Shown here: in pieces, positions 39,892-49,569 of the stretch
How the letters are laid out: every line of letters starts with the position of its first letter
How positions within the stretch are numbered: position 1 is the first letter of the stretch
Source: Candidatus Krumholzibacteriia bacterium
GTDB taxonomy: Bacteria; Krumholzibacteriota; Krumholzibacteriia; JAJRXK01
Assembly (NCBI GenBank): GCA_041484665.1
Contig: JBGPIA010000002.1
Location: 704,001-768,000, forward strand
DNA length: 64,000 bases
Direction of reading: 5' to 3'
Translations under genes and position numbers: made by a program
Notes under the pieces: model-generated
Seen by the model: only the letters and a program-made list of their open reading frames with translations
Database searches by the model: none
Told to the model about the DNA's origin: nothing

Positions 39892-42800
39892 TCAGCGCAT
39901 GAGCACGACGCGGCCCATGTCGCTGCGGGCGAGCCCAACGGCGGCGCCCACTTCGAGGCGATACAGGTAGACGCCGTTGGCCAGCTCGTCTCCCTGATCG
40001 TCGCGTCCGTTCCAGCGCACGGCGACCTCGACCCCGCCGGCCGAGTCTCCTCCTTCGACGTGCGCCACGGCGCGGCCGGTCAGGTCATACACGGTGACCT
40101 TCGACCACTGCACCGGCACCGTCGTCTGTGCCACGAAGAAGATCGGCGTGCGGTCCGGATTGCCTGGGCTGGGGAACGGATAGTGCGCGCCGACGGCCAG
40201 CGCCTCGCGCGCGGCGATTTGCGTAAGGGCGAAATCGGTCGTGACCGTGTCCAGGGTGAGATGAAGTGTCTGCGGCTGTCCGCTCCCGTCGCCGCGCCCC
40301 TGCGACGTGAGGCGCCAGTGCCGCCCGTCCAGGTCCACCGCGATCTTCACCGGGGTGTCGATCACCGCCGCGGAGATCGCAACTGCGGTCTGGCCGACGG
40401 TGAGGGTGATCGGCGCCTCGAACTCCACCTCGATGGGCACCGAATGGTCTGCCGGGAGCGGCCCGGAGCCTTCGTCCACCTCGGTCCCGTCCAGGCGCAC
40501 GGCGAGCGTGAATGGCACGAATAACTGCACGGTCGTGGGGCGCACGTCGGGGTAAGCCTCGTCGTAGGCCTGCACTTCCACGCGGTAGCCTCGCCCGCCA
40601 CGCGGATTGAGCGCGTCGAGCAGCCCCCCGTAGGCGACCAGCGGCAGGTCGAGCGTCGCCCCCTTGATGCGCGGATCCAAGCCCGCGCCCGGATCGGGCA
40701 CGAGCAGGCCGGAGTGGTCCGTGCCGCGGCTGTCGCGCACGACGAAGCTGTGAACGCCTGTCTCATCCACGCCGCGCAACTGCAGGGCGAAGCTCTGGCC
40801 GCCCGGCGGCGCGGTTACCTGCGCGCCACTGGTCACCGGCTGCCCGCCGTGCAGCACGGTTAGGCGCGGCGGGGCCGCATCCACGCGCAGCAGCGGATCG
40901 CCGATCAGGTTGAATTGCGCCACCATGTCGTGCTGGAGCGTGTCGCTGGTCGGGAAGATGTTCTGCTCGCCTTCGGCCAGCGCCTCGCCGATCACCCACT
41001 GGCTCATCAGCGTCCACGGCCCGTTGAACACCTGACTGCTGGTGCGCCCCTGCGTGAAGAGCACCTTGCCAATCTCCTCCATCATGCGCGAGATCTGGAA
41101 CAGGTACTCGAACCCGCTGCTGCCGTAGCTGGCGATGCCGCCGCCGGTGGGATGCAGCACGAACAGCTCGCCCAGCGAGCGGCCCTGGGAGGCCTCGCGA
41201 TAGTCGATGAAGTCGCTCTCGTGGCAGCCCATGCCGAAGAAGATGAAGGGTTTGCCCACGTTGGTGAGCGTCGGGATGTTGCCGCTCTCGAAAAGGTTCT
41301 CGTGGGCCAGCACGTTGTAGGCGGCGTGCCCCTCGTAGGACACGATCAGGGCGCCCTCGTTCATGCGGTTGACCAGCAGCGGCACCACCTCGTCGATGAC
41401 GCGATCGCGGTAGATGTGCCTGTCACCGCACTGCTCGCCGATCGGGTGCATGGGATCGGTGTACTCGCGCAGGTAGAACCCGGTGGACTGGATGGTTGCA
41501 TCGAGGGAGTCGCTCCAGGCAGCGACGGTGCTCTGGCTGCACTGGAACTGTCCTTCGTTGTACGGGCAGCCGTCCCTGCGGCAGTAGCTGGATTGCGTGC
41601 CGCCCAGGACGCTGGAGCTCCAGGTGTCGTCGGCCACCCACAGCGCGCGGCGGCGCCAGTCGTCGCCGAGCTGCGGCTGCTCGTATGCGATAATCTTGCC
41701 GATCATCGTGGAGAGCTCGGCGTCGTTGTCGGCCGGTAGGCGTCCGACGGCCATGTCCGGGCCGCGGTCGAGATTGTCCGGATAGCCGGCGTCGATGGTG
41801 TTGAACGTGCCGTACCACTTGTCCGAGGCCAGCACCTCATTGATGTCGAATACCTGTCGGTGGAGCGGTGCCGGTAGCAGATCCGCGCCGGCGGTGCCGG
41901 AGAGCCCCCGCGCGTCCTCGCTCGCGTCGCCGACCAGCAGCAGCGCGCGCGCGTCCCACACGAGGTAGGCGTACTCGGCGAAGCGCTTGATGCCGGCCGG
42001 CGATTTCAGGCCGCCGCTGAACTGGTCGAACACCGACTGCACGTCGACGTAGGCGTACTTCCACCCGCGCGCATCGTGGTCGCGGCGCCACTGCAGCCAG
42101 GGCTGCGCGGCGGCGGCGAGCTGCGCGGGACCGATGGCCAGGGCCTGCGCCTGCCCCTGTAGGAAGACCGACGTGTCGCTGGTGAGGAGCGGGCTCTGGG
42201 CGCGCTCGATCTCGTCGGCGCGCGCCCGCGGGGCGCGGGCAGGACGCAGCGCCCAGAACGCGCGCTCCAGCCCGGCGATCTGATCCGCCTGGATGGAGAG
42301 CGAGCGGCTGCCGTCGCCCGGGTCGAGGATGTTCCCGCCTTGCAGCGCGATGTAGATGGGCGCGCGCGGGTCGGTGACCTCCAACAGCAACAGGTCGGAA
42401 GCGGTGAAGCCAGGCACCACGATGCTGGGCTGCCCGCCGATCTGGCCGCCGGTGAAGCGGGCCTCGTCGCGGGTGGCGCGATAGAGTGCCTGGTAGTCGA
42501 GCGTGATGCTGCCCAGGTACGCCTGAACCAGCCCGCTGGCTGCGGGAGTGAGCTGGAAGGTCGCGAAGCCGTCGCCGATGGCGTCGGAGGACACGACGCC
42601 GGTGAACGGGATCAGGGTGAGGCTGTTGACCGTACTCGTGTCCAACAGCTGGCTGTTGGTCCCCTGGCTGATGGTGGCGCGTACCTGCGGCGGACCGGAC
42701 GCCGGACCGGCCTGGAGGCCGCGCGCCGCGAGCGTCCACGTCAGGCTGATGGTGTTGCCCGCAGCGGGGTGGAGCAGCTCCACGCTGATCTGGGCTGAGG

Positions 42801-44262
42801 CGACGGCGTTGGTGGTCCAGTGATACCGCGGCTGGGTGATGTCGGCGGGGTTGTCCTGGTAGAAGGCGTCGGACTCCAGCCGATCGAGGCGGCGATACGA
42901 TGCCTGCGGCGCGCCGGAGGCCGGCGGCAGCGTGGCGGCGGACATCCGCAGCCAGCCCTGCGCGTCGGGCTCCGCCGCAGCGATCCAGTACACATTATTG
43001 TTGTTCCAGTTGTCCGAGCGCTCCGCGACCGCGCGCGGAAACGTCTGCCCGGCGATCGTGCGCTCGACGTCGTCGTCGCGCATGTCGAACCCGTAGAAGA
43101 GGATCTCGTCGGTGCCGAGCGCCGGGCCGTTCTCGTCGGGCAGGCCCAGGAAGAAGAACGGTACGTCGGCGGTCAGGGGCGCGGGCGCCTGCGCGTCGAA
43201 CAGCCCGTCGCCCGGGGCGTTGTAGCGCCTTTGGTAGAGGCGGACCTTGCGCCGGGGCACATCGGTGGGGAAGCCGAGCGCCATCAGGTCGCCCAGATGT
43301 ACGCGCAGGGGTCCGGTGCGGCTCACGCGCACACGGTACTCGCTGCTGAGCAGGCTGGCGGGGTCGAGCGGGCGGATGTCGCCGGCGGCTCGGGCGCCGG
43401 TTGCGCCAAGTGGGCCCGGCGGGCTTTGCCGGCTTTGTGGGCTCTGCACGCCCTGCGCACCGGCCGTGCCGTCGCTGGGCAGGTGCAGCCATCCGTCGCG
43501 CAGAGCGCGCTGCCGGGGCGACAGCGACCGCCACGGGGCCGCGAACTCCGGGTTGAGCACCGTGCGCAGGATCATCGGATCGGGCTCGCCCTCCTCCGGC
43601 GCGATGGCTTGCTGCCCGGCCAGCTTGTGCCCGCCGGCGAAGGTGACCGTGATCTCGATGCGGCGAGCGACGTCGAGCCGTTCGCTGGCGGCGTCGTAGG
43701 CCACGGGGCGCACGAGCAGCGAGACGATGCGCTGCTTGCGGCTCCAGGTGGGCTCTCCCAGGCGGACGACGTCCGCGGTTGTGGCGCGATAGCTGGCGTA
43801 GCCGCGGCCTTCCACCATGCGCTCGACCAGGGATGGCTCGCCGTACGGCGCGGGTTGGACGCTGCTCGGCGTCAGAGCCGGAGCGATGCGGCCCGGCGGC
43901 AGCGCGCTGGTCTCGACGACGCGCGCGCTCAGCTGGACGTCGCCCAAGGGCGGCACCGCGATCCACGCTCCGGCCTCAGGGAGCGCGGGCAGCCCGGGAT
44001 CGCCCGCCAGGTTGTAGCCATCGATCGTGAGCGCGATCCACGGGCGCTCTTGCCCCTCGATCGTGGTCGTGCGCGGCTGTGGCACATCGATCGAGATGCG
44101 AATGCGCGCGGGTGTGCTCTCGAGGACCGTCCAGCCTGCGGGCGCGCGCCCGAAGGCGGGTGTGGCGGTCAGCACCGTTCCCAGCAGAACCAAGCCCAGC
44201 GGACCGCAGTTGAGAGCGGCACGCCGTACGAACGAGTCTCCAGCCTGCAGCATTCGGCGCAT
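39892..44262 (-). CDS. Peptidase C25 (gingipain/PorU-like) with propeptide and C-terminal FlgD/T9SS-like domain
   Basis: Propeptide GDPGLPALP; LLLVGDA, SDKWY, VGRLP, YEGH and MGC catalytic motifs, FNLIGDP; C-terminal YPFPSP..VYDLTGR..WNGRDDQGDELANGVYLY. Confidence 0.85.
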   Translation of the reverse strand: MRRMLQAGDSFVRRAALNCGPLGLVLLGTVLTATPAFGRAPAGWTVLESTPARIRISIDVPQPRTTTIEGQERPWIALTIDGYNLAGDPGLPALPEAGAWIAVPPLGDVQLSARVVETSALPPGRIAPALTPSSVQPAPYGEPSLVERMVEGRGYASYRATTADVVRLGEPTWSRKQRIVSLLVRPVAYDAASERLDVARRIEITVTFAGGHKLAGQQAIAPEEGEPDPMILRTVLNPEFAAPWRSLSPRQRALRDGWLHLPSDGTAGAQGVQSPQSRQSPPGPLGATGARAAGDIRPLDPASLLSSEYRVRVSRTGPLRVHLGDLMALGFPTDVPRRKVRLYQRRYNAPGDGLFDAQAPAPLTADVPFFFLGLPDENGPALGTDEILFYGFDMRDDDVERTIAGQTFPRAVAERSDNWNNNNVYWIAAAEPDAQGWLRMSAATLPPASGAPQASYRRLDRLESDAFYQDNPADITQPRYHWTTNAVASAQISVELLHPAAGNTISLTWTLAARGLQAGPASGPPQVRATISQGTNSQLLDTSTVNSLTLIPFTGVVSSDAIGDGFATFQLTPAASGLVQAYLGSITLDYQALYRATRDEARFTGGQIGGQPSIVVPGFTASDLLLLEVTDPRAPIYIALQGGNILDPGDGSRSLSIQADQIAGLERAFWALRPARAPRARADEIERAQSPLLTSDTSVFLQGQAQALAIGPAQLAAAAQPWLQWRRDHDARGWKYAYVDVQSVFDQFSGGLKSPAGIKRFAEYAYLVWDARALLLVGDASEDARGLSGTAGADLLPAPLHRQVFDINEVLASDKWYGTFNTIDAGYPDNLDRGPDMAVGRLPADNDAELSTMIGKIIAYEQPQLGDDWRRRALWVADDTWSSSVLGGTQSSYCRRDGCPYNEGQFQCSQSTVAAWSDSLDATIQSTGFYLREYTDPMHPIGEQCGDRHIYRDRVIDEVVPLLVNRMNEGALIVSYEGHAAYNVLAHENLFESGNIPTLTNVGKPFIFFGMGCHESDFIDYREASQGRSLGELFVLHPTGGGIASYGSSGFEYLFQISRMMEEIGKVLFTQGRTSSQVFNGPWTLMSQWVIGEALAEGEQNIFPTSDTLQHDMVAQFNLIGDPLLRVDAAPPRLTVLHGGQPVTSGAQVTAPPGGQSFALQLRGVDETGVHSFVVRDSRGTDHSGLLVPDPGAGLDPRIKGATLDLPLVAYGGLLDALNPRGGRGYRVEVQAYDEAYPDVRPTTVQLFVPFTLAVRLDGTEVDEGSGPLPADHSVPIEVEFEAPITLTVGQTAVAISAAVIDTPVKIAVDLDGRHWRLTSQGRGDGSGQPQTLHLTLDTVTTDFALTQIAAREALAVGAHYPFPSPGNPDRTPIFFVAQTTVPVQWSKVTVYDLTGRAVAHVEGGDSAGGVEVAVRWNGRDDQGDELANGVYLYRLEVGAAVGLARSDMGRVVLMR

Positions 44263-44482
44263 GCCGGGGATCCTCCGGGGTTCGCGATGTAGGCTCAGGG
44301 GAGGCACAAAAGAAGGCAGCCCACGACGGTCAGGGCAGCGGCGCCGACGGCGCGGCACGCGAGAAGCCAAGGCCCTCATCCCAGGAGCTGCCCCATGGCT
44401 CCTTGAAGGATACGAACGCGGTTGGCACCCGTCAACGCGCAGACTGGATGCGGACCGCGCGCGCCCCTGCAGTGAATCGGTG

Positions 44483-44557
44483 TGTCCCCAACGGGATTCG
44501 AACCCGTGTACCCACCTTGAAAGGGTGGTGTCCTAGGCCTGGCTAGACGATGGGGAC
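44483..44557 (-). tRNA. tRNA-Glu (TTC)
   Basis: Minus strand GTCCCCATCGTCTAGCCAGGCCTAGGACACCACCCTTTCAAGGTGGGTACACGGGTTCGAATCCCGTTGGGGACA; cloverleaf with TTC anticodon; CCA not encoded. Confidence 0.95.
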
Positions 44558-44686: not shown

Positions 44687-45376
44687 CTAGCAGCGGCGAA
44701 TCACGCCCGCGAGCGCACCCAGAACCCGCACCTCCCCCATTTCCGGCGTGACCAAGATCGAGGCCAGCGAGGGATTCTCCGGCTTGAGCTCGATGAACCC
44801 CTCGCGCTTGTAGAAACGCTTGAGCGTCACCTCATCCTCGATCAGCACGACGACGATCTCGCCGTTGCGCGCCACGGGCTGCGGCCGGATGAGGATGAGG
44901 TCGCCGTTGCAGATGTGGGCATCGATCATCGAGTTGCCGCGTACGCGCAACAGATAGGTGCGCGGATCGCCCACCAGCGTGGCATCGAGGTGCAGCTCGC
45001 CCTCGCGCTGCTCGGCAGCCAGGATCGGACGGCCAGCCGCCACGTCGCCGATCAGCGGCACGGTGACCGTGCGCGGGCGGCTCCCGGGCGCGCCCGCCGC
45101 AGACGAAGACTGGTCGAGCGCGAATGGCTCGCCATCGGAATCCGGGACCGGGACTGCGTGCAGCACCTCGATGGCGCGGGAGCGCACGCGGTCGCGGCGG
45201 ATGTAGCCCTTCCGCTCCAACCAATCGAGGTGGTCATGAATGGTGCGGGTGCTGGTGAGGCCCATGACCCCACCCAGCTCCCGCACCGTCGGAGGGTAAC
45301 CGTGCTCATCGAGCCAGCGGCAGAGCGCGCGAAGCACGTCCTTCTGACGCGGCGTCAGCTCCCTTGGTGTGCTCAC
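44687..45376 (-). CDS. lexA: SOS repressor LexA
   Basis: LTPRQ..GYPPTVRE winged HTH; VAAG cleavage site; GNSM (Ser) and TLK (Lys) dyad; GTGA overlap with the upstream gene. Confidence 0.95.
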   Translation of the reverse strand: MSTPRELTPRQKDVLRALCRWLDEHGYPPTVRELGGVMGLTSTRTIHDHLDWLERKGYIRRDRVRSRAIEVLHAVPVPDSDGEPFALDQSSSAAGAPGSRPRTVTVPLIGDVAAGRPILAAEQREGELHLDATLVGDPRTYLLRVRGNSMIDAHICNGDLILIRPQPVARNGEIVVVLIEDEVTLKRFYKREGFIELKPENPSLASILVTPEMGEVRVLGALAGVIRRC

Positions 45377-46911
45377 GTGCCCCAACCCTCCAGACCGAGA
45401 TCGAGTTGACGTTCAGGTTCGCCCGTGACGAGCGCCCGGCCGCGTCCTCCGCGGCGGCCCGCCGCGGCTGGCATGCGCACGATCGCGTCGCCGGCGGACG
45501 CGTCGCCGGCCCGGCCTGCGCGGGTCCGCCCGCGCGGCGGCGCGACGGATCCCTCAGCGTGCAGCTCCAGCTCGAACCAACCCAGCGCACGGCGGTCGGC
45601 CTCATCAAGGCTCACGCAGGGAACGCCGTCCAGGTCGCGCGCCAGCGGAGCACGCGCCCACAGTGGCTCGCCGCTGAAGCAGAACCGGCGTCCTGGGTGC
45701 GCGGGCGCCTCCGAGCAGGCGGCCAGCATGCCGGCGTCGATCCACGGAACCAGCCGCGCCGAGAGCCGGGGCCAGACCGCTGCCTGCACCGCGACTGTCA
45801 GCCTGCGATCCCACTGCTGAAGCGCGGTGGCGAGCGCGGTCGCGGCGGATCCGGCTGCCTGGGGCGCGGCGTCCTCGGCAGGCCGGCGGTCGGTGAGGCC
45901 GAGCAGGTAGGCGCAGACACCTTCGAGCTCTTGCAGGGGTGCGCTCACGCGGACCGAAGGGAGAGGTGCCAGCGTTTGCAACAGGGCCGCCGCGCGCCGC
46001 AGCAATGGGCTGACGTGCCAGGCGTAGAGAGCGCGCAGCTCGGACTCGGCCGCCGTTCGCCATGCCGCCGGCAGGCGCTCGAAGAGAGTGCGCTCGCGCA
46101 GCAGGCTCCCGCGGTGAAGCAGATCGCGCAGCCCGGGGACATACGCCTCGTCGGGAAGCCGGTGCTCGCGGTCGAGCTGGAAGTCGGTCCACAGGAGCGG
46201 CGCCGGCTGCGTGGATGGTGGTGGGAACGCGGGTGACATGGATTGCGGGGGCGCGTGCGGCGTCGCGACCGGCGTCGCGTTCGACATCGCGGGCGCCATC
46301 GTGGCGGCCATCCTCGGCGACAACAGCGCGGTCAGGTCCTCTGGGCGCGCCAAACGGATGGCGGGCAGACGACACTCCCGCGCCAATTGCACAAGCGGAT
46401 CGTCATCGGAGGCCTCCAGTGGCACGGCCAGGGCCACGCGATCGATTCCGAGCCGATGCACCCAACGCTGTGCGCGTTCGAGGCGGGAGGCCGCGTCATC
46501 AGACGCGGGCGATCCAAGCACGTCACCCTCCACACCCAGTAGTGCGAAGGGATGGTCGGTGCTGGCGGAGTCGGGGACCTCCAGCCCCATCCCAGCCTCG
46601 GCCAGCAGCCGGGCTAGCGCGGCGTCGCTTCGCGCGACCCAGAGGATCTTCGCCGGGTCGCCGAGCCCGCCGGTCGCGAGCGGGCGCGCGGGCAGCCAGC
46701 GCGCTGGAAGCATCGGGCGACGCCGCCGGGCTGCGGCCTGCAGCAGCGCAAACAGCCCGCGGCCGTGCTCGCCGAACTCGACCAGGAGGCCGTCCCCCAG
46801 GTTCTCGTCCAGGAGCTGCAGGATCTCGTCCGCCCCGTTTCCCGGCTGTTGCCAGGAGGCGTCCACGACGATGAGGGTCATCGGCCGGTGGACCTTCTGC
46901 TCGTCACTCAA
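45373..46911 (-). CDS. Degenerate, catalytically inactive DnaE (Pol III alpha)-like protein with C-terminal clamp-binding motif
   Basis: Colinear with DnaE PHP and palm segments (LVQLARECRLP, ESELRAL, VCAYLLGLTDRRP, HPGRRFCFSGEPL..APL, DRRALGWFELEL). No PDID aspartates. Ends RQLDL. TTGA coupling to dinB with GGAGGAGGAG RBS. Confidence 0.6.
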   Translation of the reverse strand: MSDEQKVHRPMTLIVVDASWQQPGNGADEILQLLDENLGDGLLVEFGEHGRGLFALLQAAARRRRPMLPARWLPARPLATGGLGDPAKILWVARSDAALARLLAEAGMGLEVPDSASTDHPFALLGVEGDVLGSPASDDAASRLERAQRWVHRLGIDRVALAVPLEASDDDPLVQLARECRLPAIRLARPEDLTALLSPRMAATMAPAMSNATPVATPHAPPQSMSPAFPPPSTQPAPLLWTDFQLDREHRLPDEAYVPGLRDLLHRGSLLRERTLFERLPAAWRTAAESELRALYAWHVSPLLRRAAALLQTLAPLPSVRVSAPLQELEGVCAYLLGLTDRRPAEDAAPQAAGSAATALATALQQWDRRLTVAVQAAVWPRLSARLVPWIDAGMLAACSEAPAHPGRRFCFSGEPLWARAPLARDLDGVPCVSLDEADRRALGWFELELHAEGSVAPPRGRTRAGRAGDASAGDAIVRMPAAAGRRGGRGRALVTGEPERQLDLGLEGWGT

Positions 46912-48215
46912 GCCACTCCTCCTCCTGCTGCTATCTCGCTCCGGCTCCGTTGCCGACGTTCGCCATCGGCGGTGTCGGCGTCCCTCTTCCATGCCTCCCA
47001 ACGCACGTCCTCTTCCGACCCGTCCCAGCGGGGCGAGGTTGGGCGCAGCAGCGCCGTGGCGCGCGCGATAGCCTCCGCACCGTAGCGTTCGTGCACCCCG
47101 TCGAGCACTGGCTCCAGCCGCGACCACGCCTGGGCAGCGCGGCTGTCGAAGAGATCCGCCTGCCAGGCCGGCGCGGCCGTGAGCTGGCACATCCCGATGC
47201 CGATGAGGCGGACCGGCGTGCGGTCCCAATCGAGGGCGCGCAGCATGCGCCGCCCCGTGGCGAACAGAGCCCGCTCGGAGTCGATGGGACGCGAAAGTGT
47301 CGTGCGGCGCGTCACGGTGCGGAAGCTACGGTCGCGGATCTTGAGCTGGACGACGCGGCCCAGCATGCCTGCGCGGCGCATCCGGTTGCCGACCTTCTCA
47401 CAGAGGTGCAGCAGCGCCGGCTCGAGCACGCGCGAGCCGACGACATCGCGGGCGAAGGTCTCCTCGTGGCTGATGCTCTTATTCTCGCGGTCGGGGACGA
47501 CCTCACCCTGTTCGCGGGCGCAGACCATATCCTGCAGCGCGAGGCCGGTGGTGCCGAGGGACTCCTGCAGCACGATTCGCGGGGTCCGCGCAATGTCTCC
47601 GCCGGTGCGCAGCCCCAGCAAGTGCAGGTGCTCGCGCAACTTGGGGCCCACCCCCCACAAGCGCTCCACGGGCAGCGATTGGAGGAACGCGGGGCCAGCG
47701 CCATCAGCGATCACCACGAGGCCGCGAGGCTTGCGCAGGTCGCTGGCGATCTTGGCAATGCGGCGGGTCTCCCCCATTCCGATCGAAGCCCAGAGGCCGG
47801 TCTCCCGGAAGATGCGGTCACGCAGCCGCTCGCCGAAGGACTGCCAGGAGCCGTCAGGTGCGTGCAGACGATCGCAGCCCGACAGGTCCAGGAAGGCCTC
47901 GTCCAGGGAAAGGGGCTCGACCAGAGGGGAGACCGACCGCAGGATCGCCATGACCTCACGGCTCTTCTGCGCGTAGCGGCGGCCACGGCCCGGCCGCAGG
48001 ACCAGCTGGGGGCAGAGTCGGAGGGCCTGCGCGGTGGGCATGGCGCTGCGCACGCCGAACTCCCGGGCCGGGTAGGAGGCCGCCGCGATCACTCCTCGCG
48101 CGTCGGCGGCACCGCCGACGGCGACGGGCAGGCCATCGAGCTCGGGGAAGTCGAGGACCTCGACGGCCGCGTAGAAGGCGTCCATATCGACGTGGGCGAA
48201 CCAGCGTGCGCGCAT
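46908..48215 (-). CDS. dinB: DNA polymerase IV (Y family)
   Basis: HVDMDAFYAAVE, AASYPAREFGVRSAMP, PLSLDEAFLD, AKIASDLRKPRG, VRLIGI; clamp motif QADLF. Confidence 0.93.
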   Translation of the reverse strand: MRARWFAHVDMDAFYAAVEVLDFPELDGLPVAVGGAADARGVIAAASYPAREFGVRSAMPTAQALRLCPQLVLRPGRGRRYAQKSREVMAILRSVSPLVEPLSLDEAFLDLSGCDRLHAPDGSWQSFGERLRDRIFRETGLWASIGMGETRRIAKIASDLRKPRGLVVIADGAGPAFLQSLPVERLWGVGPKLREHLHLLGLRTGGDIARTPRIVLQESLGTTGLALQDMVCAREQGEVVPDRENKSISHEETFARDVVGSRVLEPALLHLCEKVGNRMRRAGMLGRVVQLKIRDRSFRTVTRRTTLSRPIDSERALFATGRRMLRALDWDRTPVRLIGIGMCQLTAAPAWQADLFDSRAAQAWSRLEPVLDGVHERYGAEAIARATALLRPTSPRWDGSEEDVRWEAWKRDADTADGERRQRSRSEIAAGGGVA

Positions 48216-48290
48216 CGTGCTTCTCCGTGATGGCCGCGCTTCCATCCAGCACCCACCGACGAGGCGCTTCGTGGAGAGCGAGACGTACCA

Positions 48291-48342
48291 CAAACCGATG
48301 TTTGCCAGACAGCAATTTAGCAAACGGTCGTTTGGCTGTCAA
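48291..48342 (-). promoter_or_regulatory. Sigma-70 promoter overlapped by tandem palindromic LexA-type boxes
   Basis: Minus strand TTGACA-N17-TAAATT. CAAAC-N4-GTTTG at 48291-48304 and 48321-48334, with a degenerate copy at 48306-48319. Confidence 0.75.
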
Positions 48343-48566: not shown

Positions 48567-49181
48567 ATGAAACCCACGCGCGGCACCGAGTCCGTGAACG
48601 AAGATCCCGTCGCGTTGCACGACACAGCGGCGGACAACCTTCGCTACATCCGTCAAACGATGGAGCGCGCATCTTCGTTCACCGCCGTCCCTGGGTGGGG
48701 CGGTGTCTGGATGGGAGCCACGGCACTGGCCACGGCCTTCATCGCCGCGCGCCAGCCTACGCCGGGGCGCTGGGTGCTGGCCTGGCTGGTGGAGGCGGCT
48801 CTAGCCGTGGGAATCGCGCTGGTGGCGATCGTGCTGAAAGCCCGGGCTACGGGAGTCTCCCCGCTCGCGGCACCGCACCTGCGATTCGCGTCGAGCTTCA
48901 CGCCGTCACTACTGGCCGGCGCCGTGCTGACAGCCGCCCTGGTGGCGATGCGTCAGTACGACCTCATCGCGGGGGTGTGGCTTCTGTTGTACGGGACCGG
49001 ATTCGTCGCGGCGGGCACACTCTCCATCCGCCTCGTACCGGTCATGGGCGCAAGTTTCATGGTGCTGGGCGCGGCGGCTCTATTTGCGCCGCTGGGCTGG
49101 GGCACCGCGTTCATGGCAGCCGGGTTCGGCGGGCTGCACGTCAGCTTCGGGTCGATCATCGCCAGGAGGCACGGTGGCTAG
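48567..49181 (+). CDS. Conserved multi-pass membrane protein
   Basis: DNLRYIRQTMERAS followed by about 6 TM helices; ends GFGGLHVSFG. Confidence 0.75.
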   Translation: MKPTRGTESVNEDPVALHDTAADNLRYIRQTMERASSFTAVPGWGGVWMGATALATAFIAARQPTPGRWVLAWLVEAALAVGIALVAIVLKARATGVSPLAAPHLRFASSFTPSLLAGAVLTAALVAMRQYDLIAGVWLLLYGTGFVAAGTLSIRLVPVMGASFMVLGAAALFAPLGWGTAFMAAGFGGLHVSFGSIIARRHGG

Positions 49182-49569
49182 GTCGAGGGCAATCAAACGC
49201 GACGATCGCACGCGCGGACAGCACGGCGCCGAGACATCACCCGGCCGCGAAGGGAAGGCGCCTGCAACGCCGCTCTCGCTGGACCGGCTCATCCACGAAC
49301 GGACACGCCTGGGGATCGTGAGCGCGTTGGCGGCGAGCGGTCCGCTTACGTTTCTGGAGCTCAAGCGTCAGCTCGCGCTGACCGACGGCAACTTGAGCGT
49401 CCATGCGCGCCGCCTGGAGGACGCCGGCTACGTCGACTGCACAAAATCGTTCGCCGGGCGCATCCCGCGGACCGAGTACCGGCTGACCGAGCTCGGTCGC
49501 AAGGCGCTCGGAGGCTACCTCTCCCACATGGAGGCTGTGATCAAGGCGGCGCGGCGCGCAGGGTCTTAA
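49174..49569 (+). CDS. Winged-helix transcriptional regulator (MarR/ArsR-like, HTH_34)
   Basis: AGGAGG RBS and GTG start; LDRLIHERTRLGI..LTDGNLSVHARRLEDAGYV..PRTEYRLT. Confidence 0.85.
   Translation: MARSRAIKRDDRTRGQHGAETSPGREGKAPATPLSLDRLIHERTRLGIVSALAASGPLTFLELKRQLALTDGNLSVHARRLEDAGYVDCTKSFAGRIPRTEYRLTELGRKALGGYLSHMEAVIKAARRAGS

Follow-up and report, generated by a model that had tools for sequence, protein, structure and literature searches.

A catalytically dead, truncated DnaE paralogue encoded between dinB and lexA in a LexA-type operon of the Krumholzibacteriia

The closest described counterparts of the locus reported here are mutasome operons. In the ImuA-ImuB-DnaE2 mutasome, a LexA-linked operon pairs a Y-family with a C-family polymerase gene, and one of the two products is dead and carries a clamp motif. 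In the PolY-DnaE2B(-RecA) and lexA-imuB-C-polY modules an active PolY likewise shares its operon with lexA and with either an accessory or a C-family gene. The mutasome variants given in those parts of the two papers that were available to us (PMC6511836, PMC12926913) feature PolY (active or inactive), ImuB-C and DnaE2, and none has an inactive DnaE; across those 11 module types DnaE2 is taken to be an active polymerase, and no inactive or truncated DnaE is described there. As far as the accessible text goes, a survey of the C family removed fragments without an intact active site (PMC3919608), and strongly diverged and truncated sequences were dropped before tree building (PMC12926913). We analysed a 64,000-nucleotide (nt) stretch of a Candidatus Krumholzibacteriia genome (contig JBGPIA010000002.1, positions 704,001 to 768,000; hereafter the window), in which dinB, a 512-amino-acid (aa) open reading frame (ORF) here termed X, and lexA follow one another. 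X is a real and conserved protein, a catalytically dead, truncated pseudo-polymerase which, judged by its predicted fold, is clearly a DnaE-derived C-family homologue whose resemblance to DnaE is invisible to sequence searches.

Set against ImuA-ImuB-DnaE2, it is here the C-family protein that is dead, whereas the Y-family DinB is catalytically intact, as the original prediction made from the DNA letters had claimed (D10, D105 and E106 are invariant in 16/16 aligned DinBs). The operon holds neither ImuA nor ImuB-C, and the dead C-family protein occurs without a Y-family gene in most of the class. The window genome also encodes ImuB and an intact, active-type DnaE2 on separate contigs (imuB on C13, dnaE2 on C34), and since both are kept, an inverted system has not replaced them. 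X is ImuB-like as a pseudo-polymerase, yet a member of no described mutasome, and apparently undescribed: no title or abstract dealing with a natural inactive DnaE paralogue was found in a literature search that left subscription papers and most supplements outside, with 0 matches in one supplement of PMC12926913.

No match to X was found in Pfam, NCBIfam or the ESM Atlas, nor any meaningful sequence match in the PDB by single-sequence or profile search, and comparison with the genome's own DnaE1 and DnaE2 gave nothing significant (blastp E 0.37 to DnaE1; hmmsearch, and hhalign against active DnaE1 alone, also not significant). The protein collection held 47 homologues besides X, with 13 representatives at 50% identity. 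The AlphaFold2 model of X, built on a 50-row alignment, had a mean predicted local distance difference test score (pLDDT) of 82 and a predicted template modelling score (pTM) of 0.80. In Foldseek at E<=0.001 the best 18 of 20 matches were all Pol III alpha or PolC chains (top E 4.8e-11), and in VIA-align, which included a search independent of Foldseek, eight C-family chains ranked first (Z 10-12.5, 360-390 residues aligned, root mean square deviation (rmsd) 6-9 A), with residues 11-454 of X superposed on residues 5-560 of E. coli DnaE. The C-terminal half folded alone again found DnaE as its first match (Foldseek E 7e-4; Z 9.8, rmsd 4.2 A); its roughly 180 aligned residues span 280 residues of E. 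coli DnaE, the match ending at 557-560, and therefore about 100 residues, corresponding to the thumb, are missing. The earlier claims of a likeness to DnaE and of sequence lost between the palm segments are accordingly borne out, the former by structure and not by sequence.

The model thus retains a PHP-like barrel and a palm in DnaE order, without thumb, fingers, HhH and all later domains, and with residues 466-501 disordered. When compared with DnaE1/Pol III alpha structures (E. coli 2hnh and 5fku; T. aquaticus 4iqj and 2hpi; M. tuberculosis 7pu7 and 5lew), X is alike in having a PHP barrel followed by a palm, in their order and fold and in a clamp-type motif, but differs in lacking the catalytic triad, recognisable PHP ligands, and the thumb, fingers, HhH, OB and C-terminal domains, and in carrying its clamp motif on a disordered tail right after the palm. 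It is not the replicative copy, which lies elsewhere in the genome and is intact. Family X polymerase relics are similarly reduced around a PHP domain, but there the PHP nuclease site is conserved, whereas ORF X has lost both sites.

The three catalytic aspartates of the C family, D401, D403 and D555, are called absolutely conserved in the accessible part of PMC3919608. In X, the end points of the alignment to DnaE give a constant offset of 106, which puts E449 on D555, and an ungapped profile scan against the genome's DnaE1 returned the same register (z 5.3), so that the predicted replacement of KxD by ELE is in register. Aspartate occupies the D401, D403 and D555 columns in 0/47, 2/47 and 0/46 rows of the X family. 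The further claim that PDIDID had become RRLTVAV is plausible, although the register at D401/D403 is uncertain by about two residues (second-best in the ungapped scan); no register restores two conserved aspartates. A conserved D368 lies two residues ahead of the D401-equivalent column. The PHP metal-binding motif HHDHEH[C/H]DH is not recognisable, there being no conserved histidine in residues 1-235 and other residues being placed there by profile alignments, in agreement with the predicted loss of PHP metal ligands, while a supposed HxG match to DnaE proved coincidental (histidine in 6/29 ungapped rows).

Conservation in X is strongest at the PHP-palm junction. In residues 236-300, 33 positions are conserved at 90% or more, and within the block 238-274 the residues P238, L240, D247, E249, R251, P253, D254, L264, R267, L270 and R274 are invariant (residues 241-254 have low pLDDT in the C-terminal half folded alone). 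Motifs of the QL.L type bind the beta clamp, and the QLDL ending noted at the outset recurs as a Q-hydrophobic-x-hydrophobic motif near the C-terminus in 45/46 homologues that reach this region, within an otherwise variable tail. Its last position is usually G or D, not F, making it a weaker variant of the clamp consensus, given as QL[S/D]LF in the text available from PMC3919608.

The open frame of X is intact in 10/10 genomes of the family (the window genome and 9/9 others), from four genera, and 191 further genomes of the class yielded no X. The ratio of non-synonymous to synonymous substitution rates (dN/dS) is 0.16-0.24 in the four closest pairs, with 0.11-0.16 for dinB in three of those pairs; the other 41 X pairs, at 0.26-0.66, are near saturation. 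X is under purifying selection and is not a decaying pseudogene. The two tests set beforehand, a structural match to DnaE and purifying selection in intact homologues, both came out in favour of a conserved DnaE relative.

When 41 genomes were searched for the DnaE core, families f3, f4, f5, f7 and f8 proved to have a third copy with a weak score. The proteins encoded at the 20 loci concerned are 915-1070 aa long and comprise PHP, core, fingers and HhH domains (two of them, L084 and L092, read only in part), and the D401-equivalent and the triad are kept in 0/20 of these third copies vs 29/29 DnaE1 controls. A clamp-like motif follows the HhH domain in 17/18 full-length copies by a permissive pattern, and the two closest pairs have dN/dS of 0.13 and 0.23. 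With a profile of 17 dead DnaEs, 45 matches among 121 genomes outscored the best DnaE1 match, active sites among these having been checked only for members of the 20 loci. In a FastTree analysis of 69 sequences (L084, L092 and X left out) the 18 dead DnaEs formed one split (SH-like support 99), whose subgroups (f4,f7), (f5,f8) and f3 mirror the DnaE1 family tree. The topology fits a single old duplication; the tree comes from FastTree only, carries long-branch warnings and lacks an outgroup, and long-branch attraction may play a part. The 14 best database matches to an f3 member comprise 13 without the triad and one that keeps it: P0061, a 1063-aa protein of an f3-like clade, is 50% identical to a dead member and has all three catalytic aspartates, and is possibly an active relic of the ancestral state.

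lexA lies directly after the dead DnaE in 10/20 loci; some of the others end at contig edges, and six f4/f7 loci have no lexA. Three more dead DnaE-lexA loci were found starting from lexA. As an observation in its own right, the f4 and f7 loci L079, L081 and L086-L090 encode a full-length dead DnaE with no lexA nearby, a near-consensus clamp motif at the end and a shared short AT-rich upstream element.

X shares with the dead DnaE-lexA family its locus (promoter layout, lexA and tRNA-Glu), a dead triad and a C-terminal clamp motif. tRNA-Glu(TTC) follows lexA in 12/13 dead-DnaE-lexA loci and in 10/10 scanned X loci, and a layout of -35 hexamer, short gap, palindrome within the spacer and -10 hexamer is common to the X loci, f3, f8 and f6; the left half-site of the palindrome is the same in X loci and f3, while f8 and f6 use other half-site letters. 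The two forms are mutually exclusive, no third DnaE being present in the ten X genomes. The X profile scored 47-48 against the dead set (probability 66-68%) vs 38.5 (25%) against 51 active DnaEs of equal diversity, with 12-24 for reversed or shuffled controls. These lines of evidence are convergent, not decisive, and we consider it likely, with some room for doubt, that X is orthologous to the full-length dead DnaE/lexA family.

The relation of X to DinB is less constant than that to lexA. The order dinB-X-lexA is found in the window, in 8/9 relatives and in 3/3 metagenome loci that extend upstream (one of them nearly the same as that of G005), and the dinB and X starts overlap or abut in 7/7 relatives with an intact dinB. 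X-lexA is kept in 9/9 relatives and dinB in 8/9: in G008 (97% complete) there was no DinB match over the cut-off, and X stands directly behind the same promoter and operators. In G007, dinB has an in-frame TGA (L030:4549-4551) with its downstream part still in frame, possibly a real inactivation or an assembly error, and X is intact. The dead DnaE loci contain no dinB (20/20), and in three closed or near-closed genomes it is over 100 kb away. G004 (93% complete) has X and no detectable DnaE2 or ImuB, neither a second DnaE nor a second Y-family match having been found. The genes that accompany X throughout are lexA and those of the core replisome. Of the original proposal that the DnaE relic serves as a scaffold for DinB, the dead, truncated and selected protein with a clamp tail in a LexA-type operon stands; the DinB-specific role is not supported as proposed, X being kept without dinB in G008 and the dead loci lacking it. 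A complex prediction for X (8-512) and DinB (1-405) gave 0.00 in two runs with controls not folded, and counts neither way.

In family f6, dinB precedes lexA and an unrelated gene of 200-230 aa occupies the slot of X. This small ORF (L097:1935-2546, L098:2651-3280, L100:1918-2595, L104:4030-4671) is a conserved orphan with a CPGC..HP..CP cysteine motif and, in several cases, an N-terminal Q..LF clamp-like motif; it gave no Pfam match and no match to X or DnaE. In other families, lexA is accompanied at loci L128, L129, L131, L132 and L137 by a divergent Y-family gene and by a second DnaE that is intact, a combination similar to the iPolY-ImuB-C-DnaE2X type.

DinB of the window scored 319.9 bits against NF002677 (Pol IV equivalog; cut-off 256) and matched Pfam IMS and IMS_C. 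It has a clamp-type motif of its own at residues 352-356, followed by a conserved helix-G-strand-like stretch, and is extended at the C-terminus; the stretch presumably resembles the RecA-NT motif, although no DUF4113-like (RecA-NT) match was returned by Pfam. The operon lexA is one of three lexA genes in the genome, the two others being located at G000:C2:305871-306461 and G000:C13:59806-60372. Cleavage of LexA after damage de-represses promoters of this kind. The 14-bp palindrome was found twice in the window vs 0.02 expected, at least one near-copy of the operator lies upstream in 13/13 family loci, and the promoter layout matches in aligned relatives; the promoter was read directly from the sequence, and the windows for comparison were picked by eye. 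A third exact operator-like site, on contig C12 inside an ORF, is probably due to chance. Judged from the sites in the sequence, the operon LexA may control little beyond its own operon.

The reading that we prefer, at about even chances, is that X is the most reduced member of an ancient, vertically inherited dead-DnaE/lexA family and that, once induced by damage, it occupies clamps or regulates the replisome, dinB being added cargo. LexA would repress the promoter shared with X, and DNA damage, through RecA-driven LexA cleavage, would lead to X being made. X would then dock on the beta clamp through its C-terminal motif, while its PHP-palm-junction surface might bind one more conserved replication or repair factor; by occupying clamps it would decide which polymerase gains access, so that Pol III is slowed or translesion enzymes take over more easily. 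In the X family, dinB would have been inserted between promoter and X and so have gained co-induction without being an obligate partner.

Several observations weigh against this reading. The operator core occurs 4 times in the 5.4-Mb genome, no more often than with other spacings, and was not seen upstream of recA in a search for the exact core, degenerate sites not having been scanned; because the core is rare and not seen at recA, damage induction is deduced from LexA alone. Clamp binding is suggested by the motif in the sequence. X is too diverged to be placed in the tree, the profile preference for the dead set is modest, and the promoter windows were chosen by eye. Having no thumb, fingers, HhH, OB or tau-binding parts, X is unable to imitate Pol III on DNA or tau, which the full-length form might do, and its function may have changed. 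That dinB lies directly upstream in nearly all relatives and in the informative metagenome loci, with starts that overlap or abut, would be expected from a real functional link, and G008 may have lost dinB only recently or may lack it through an assembly effect.

That link is the core of the alternative closest to the original prediction, an inverted mutasome in which X, as a dedicated accessory subunit, would bind DinB and either tether it to the clamp or regulate it there, a mirror image of ImuB-DnaE2 with swapped roles. The conserved gene order and coupled starts and the intact DinB speak for it, and PolY-DnaE2 pairings and role-swapped modules are known from the available parts of PMC6511836 and PMC12926913; but X persists where dinB is absent (G008) or interrupted by a stop (G007), its likely orthologues have no dinB nearby, DinB has a clamp-type motif of its own, and between dinB and lexA f6 carries an unrelated small gene and not X, so that we regard this alternative as unlikely. 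X might instead be a decoy that titrates a PHP-binding partner, either ImuB-C of ImuA-ImuB-DnaE2 or a DnaQ-type proofreader, and thereby tunes damage-induced mutagenesis. Of the parts retained, the PHP fold is the largest; ImuB and DnaE2 are both encoded in the genome, and ImuB-C is modelled on the PHP domain of DnaE2 in the part of PMC12926913 that could be consulted. The strongest conservation, however, lies at the PHP-palm junction and not in the barrel, G004 has X without a second DnaE or a second Y-family match, and DnaQ may be unneeded as the PHP site of the genome's DnaE1 is intact, which together make a decoy distinctly unlikely.

The conserved residues could also mark a new ligand, metal or catalytic site unrelated to the polymerase. 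D247/E249/H250/R251/D254 and an arginine cluster are conserved in 49-50/50 homologues with no clear counterpart in DnaE or the dead set, and D368 and R369, beside the old active-site strand, are kept in 45/47 and 47/47. Such invariance is, however, easily reached in a shallow family (45-65% identity), and no enzyme fold but DnaE was matched; we consider neofunctionalisation of this kind a long shot. That X is a decaying pseudogene or one half of a split polymerase is largely refuted and retains hardly any probability. Extreme divergence from DnaE and the dN/dS of the distant pairs would agree with it, but the frame is open across four genera, the close pairs are constrained and the fold is confident; fingers-domain matches over the cut-off were found only in DnaE1 and DnaE2, with no free fingers gene, and the catalytic residues belong to the half kept in X, yet are gone.

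A dead yet conserved DnaE would be to the C family what ImuB is to the Y family, and would add a component of a new kind to damage-inducible operons. Running from intact through full-length dead to half-length, the series indicates which parts of Pol III alpha are valuable without catalysis, namely PHP, palm junction and clamp hook, and X offers a directly testable handle on the control of clamp access during damage, its range here, one uncultured class, limiting the breadth of such conclusions. More tentatively, and rather against the odds as we see them, the class may have evolved a damage-inducible replication brake or polymerase switch from a duplicated replicative polymerase under a private LexA, by way of a graded series from the intact enzyme through a full-length dead form to a minimum of PHP, palm and clamp hook, joined here to DinB as a role-reversed mutasome.

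The features of the operon are collected in Table 1. All three genes are read from the minus strand, with the 4-nt stop/start overlaps on each side of X that the original prediction had described. A ribosome-binding-like run precedes the TTG start of X, and an alternative ATG start lies 26 nt downstream. The region is reproduced by contigs from four other runs, one contig covering 44848-47051 with 1 difference.

Table 1. Coordinates of the dinB-X-lexA operon and associated features (numbering of the window)
Feature	Position	Strand	Basis or remarks
sigma70-type promoter	48314..48342	-	-35 hexamer 48337-48342, 17-nt spacer, -10 hexamer 48314-48319; read directly from sequence
Operator copy 1, putative LexA site	48321..48334	.	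14-bp palindrome (5-bp arms, 4-bp spacer) within promoter spacer
Operator copy 2, putative LexA site	48291..48304	.	30 bp from copy 1
dinB, Y-family DNA polymerase, 435 aa	46908..48215	-	NF002677, Pfam IMS and IMS_C, alignment
X, dead truncated DnaE paralogue, 512 aa	45373..46911	-	PHP barrel, thumbless palm and disordered tail; predicted structure, structural searches, alignments
PHP-like barrel of X, residues about 11-244	46180..46881	-	VIA-align Z 9.3 to 4gx8/4gx9, Z 8 to stand-alone PHP proteins; profile alignments; conserved-residue list
Most conserved block of X, residues 238-274, PHP-palm junction	46090..46200	-	Alignment; candidate binding surface
Palm of X, residues about 275-455	45547..46089	-	D401/D403/D555 columns of DnaE = R370/T372/E449; thumb (about 100 residues) absent
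Clamp-type motif QLDLG of X, residues 502-506	45394..45408	-	At end of poorly conserved disordered tail
lexA, 229 aa	44687..45376	-	TIGR00498 204.8 bits (cut-off 110.95)
tRNA-Glu(TTC)	44482..44557	-	Directly after lexA; synteny marker for locus across class

An Rfam search of 15 loci gave no family besides tRNA. Beside the operon promoter, window positions 48567-49569 (plus strand) hold a divergent membrane-protein-like ORF with no Pfam match and a winged-helix regulator (HTH_34). Beyond tRNA-Glu, positions 39892-44379 (minus strand) encode a secreted-looking protein of about 1450 aa, which by eye we take to be gingipain/C25 peptidase-like with a FlgD-like tail.

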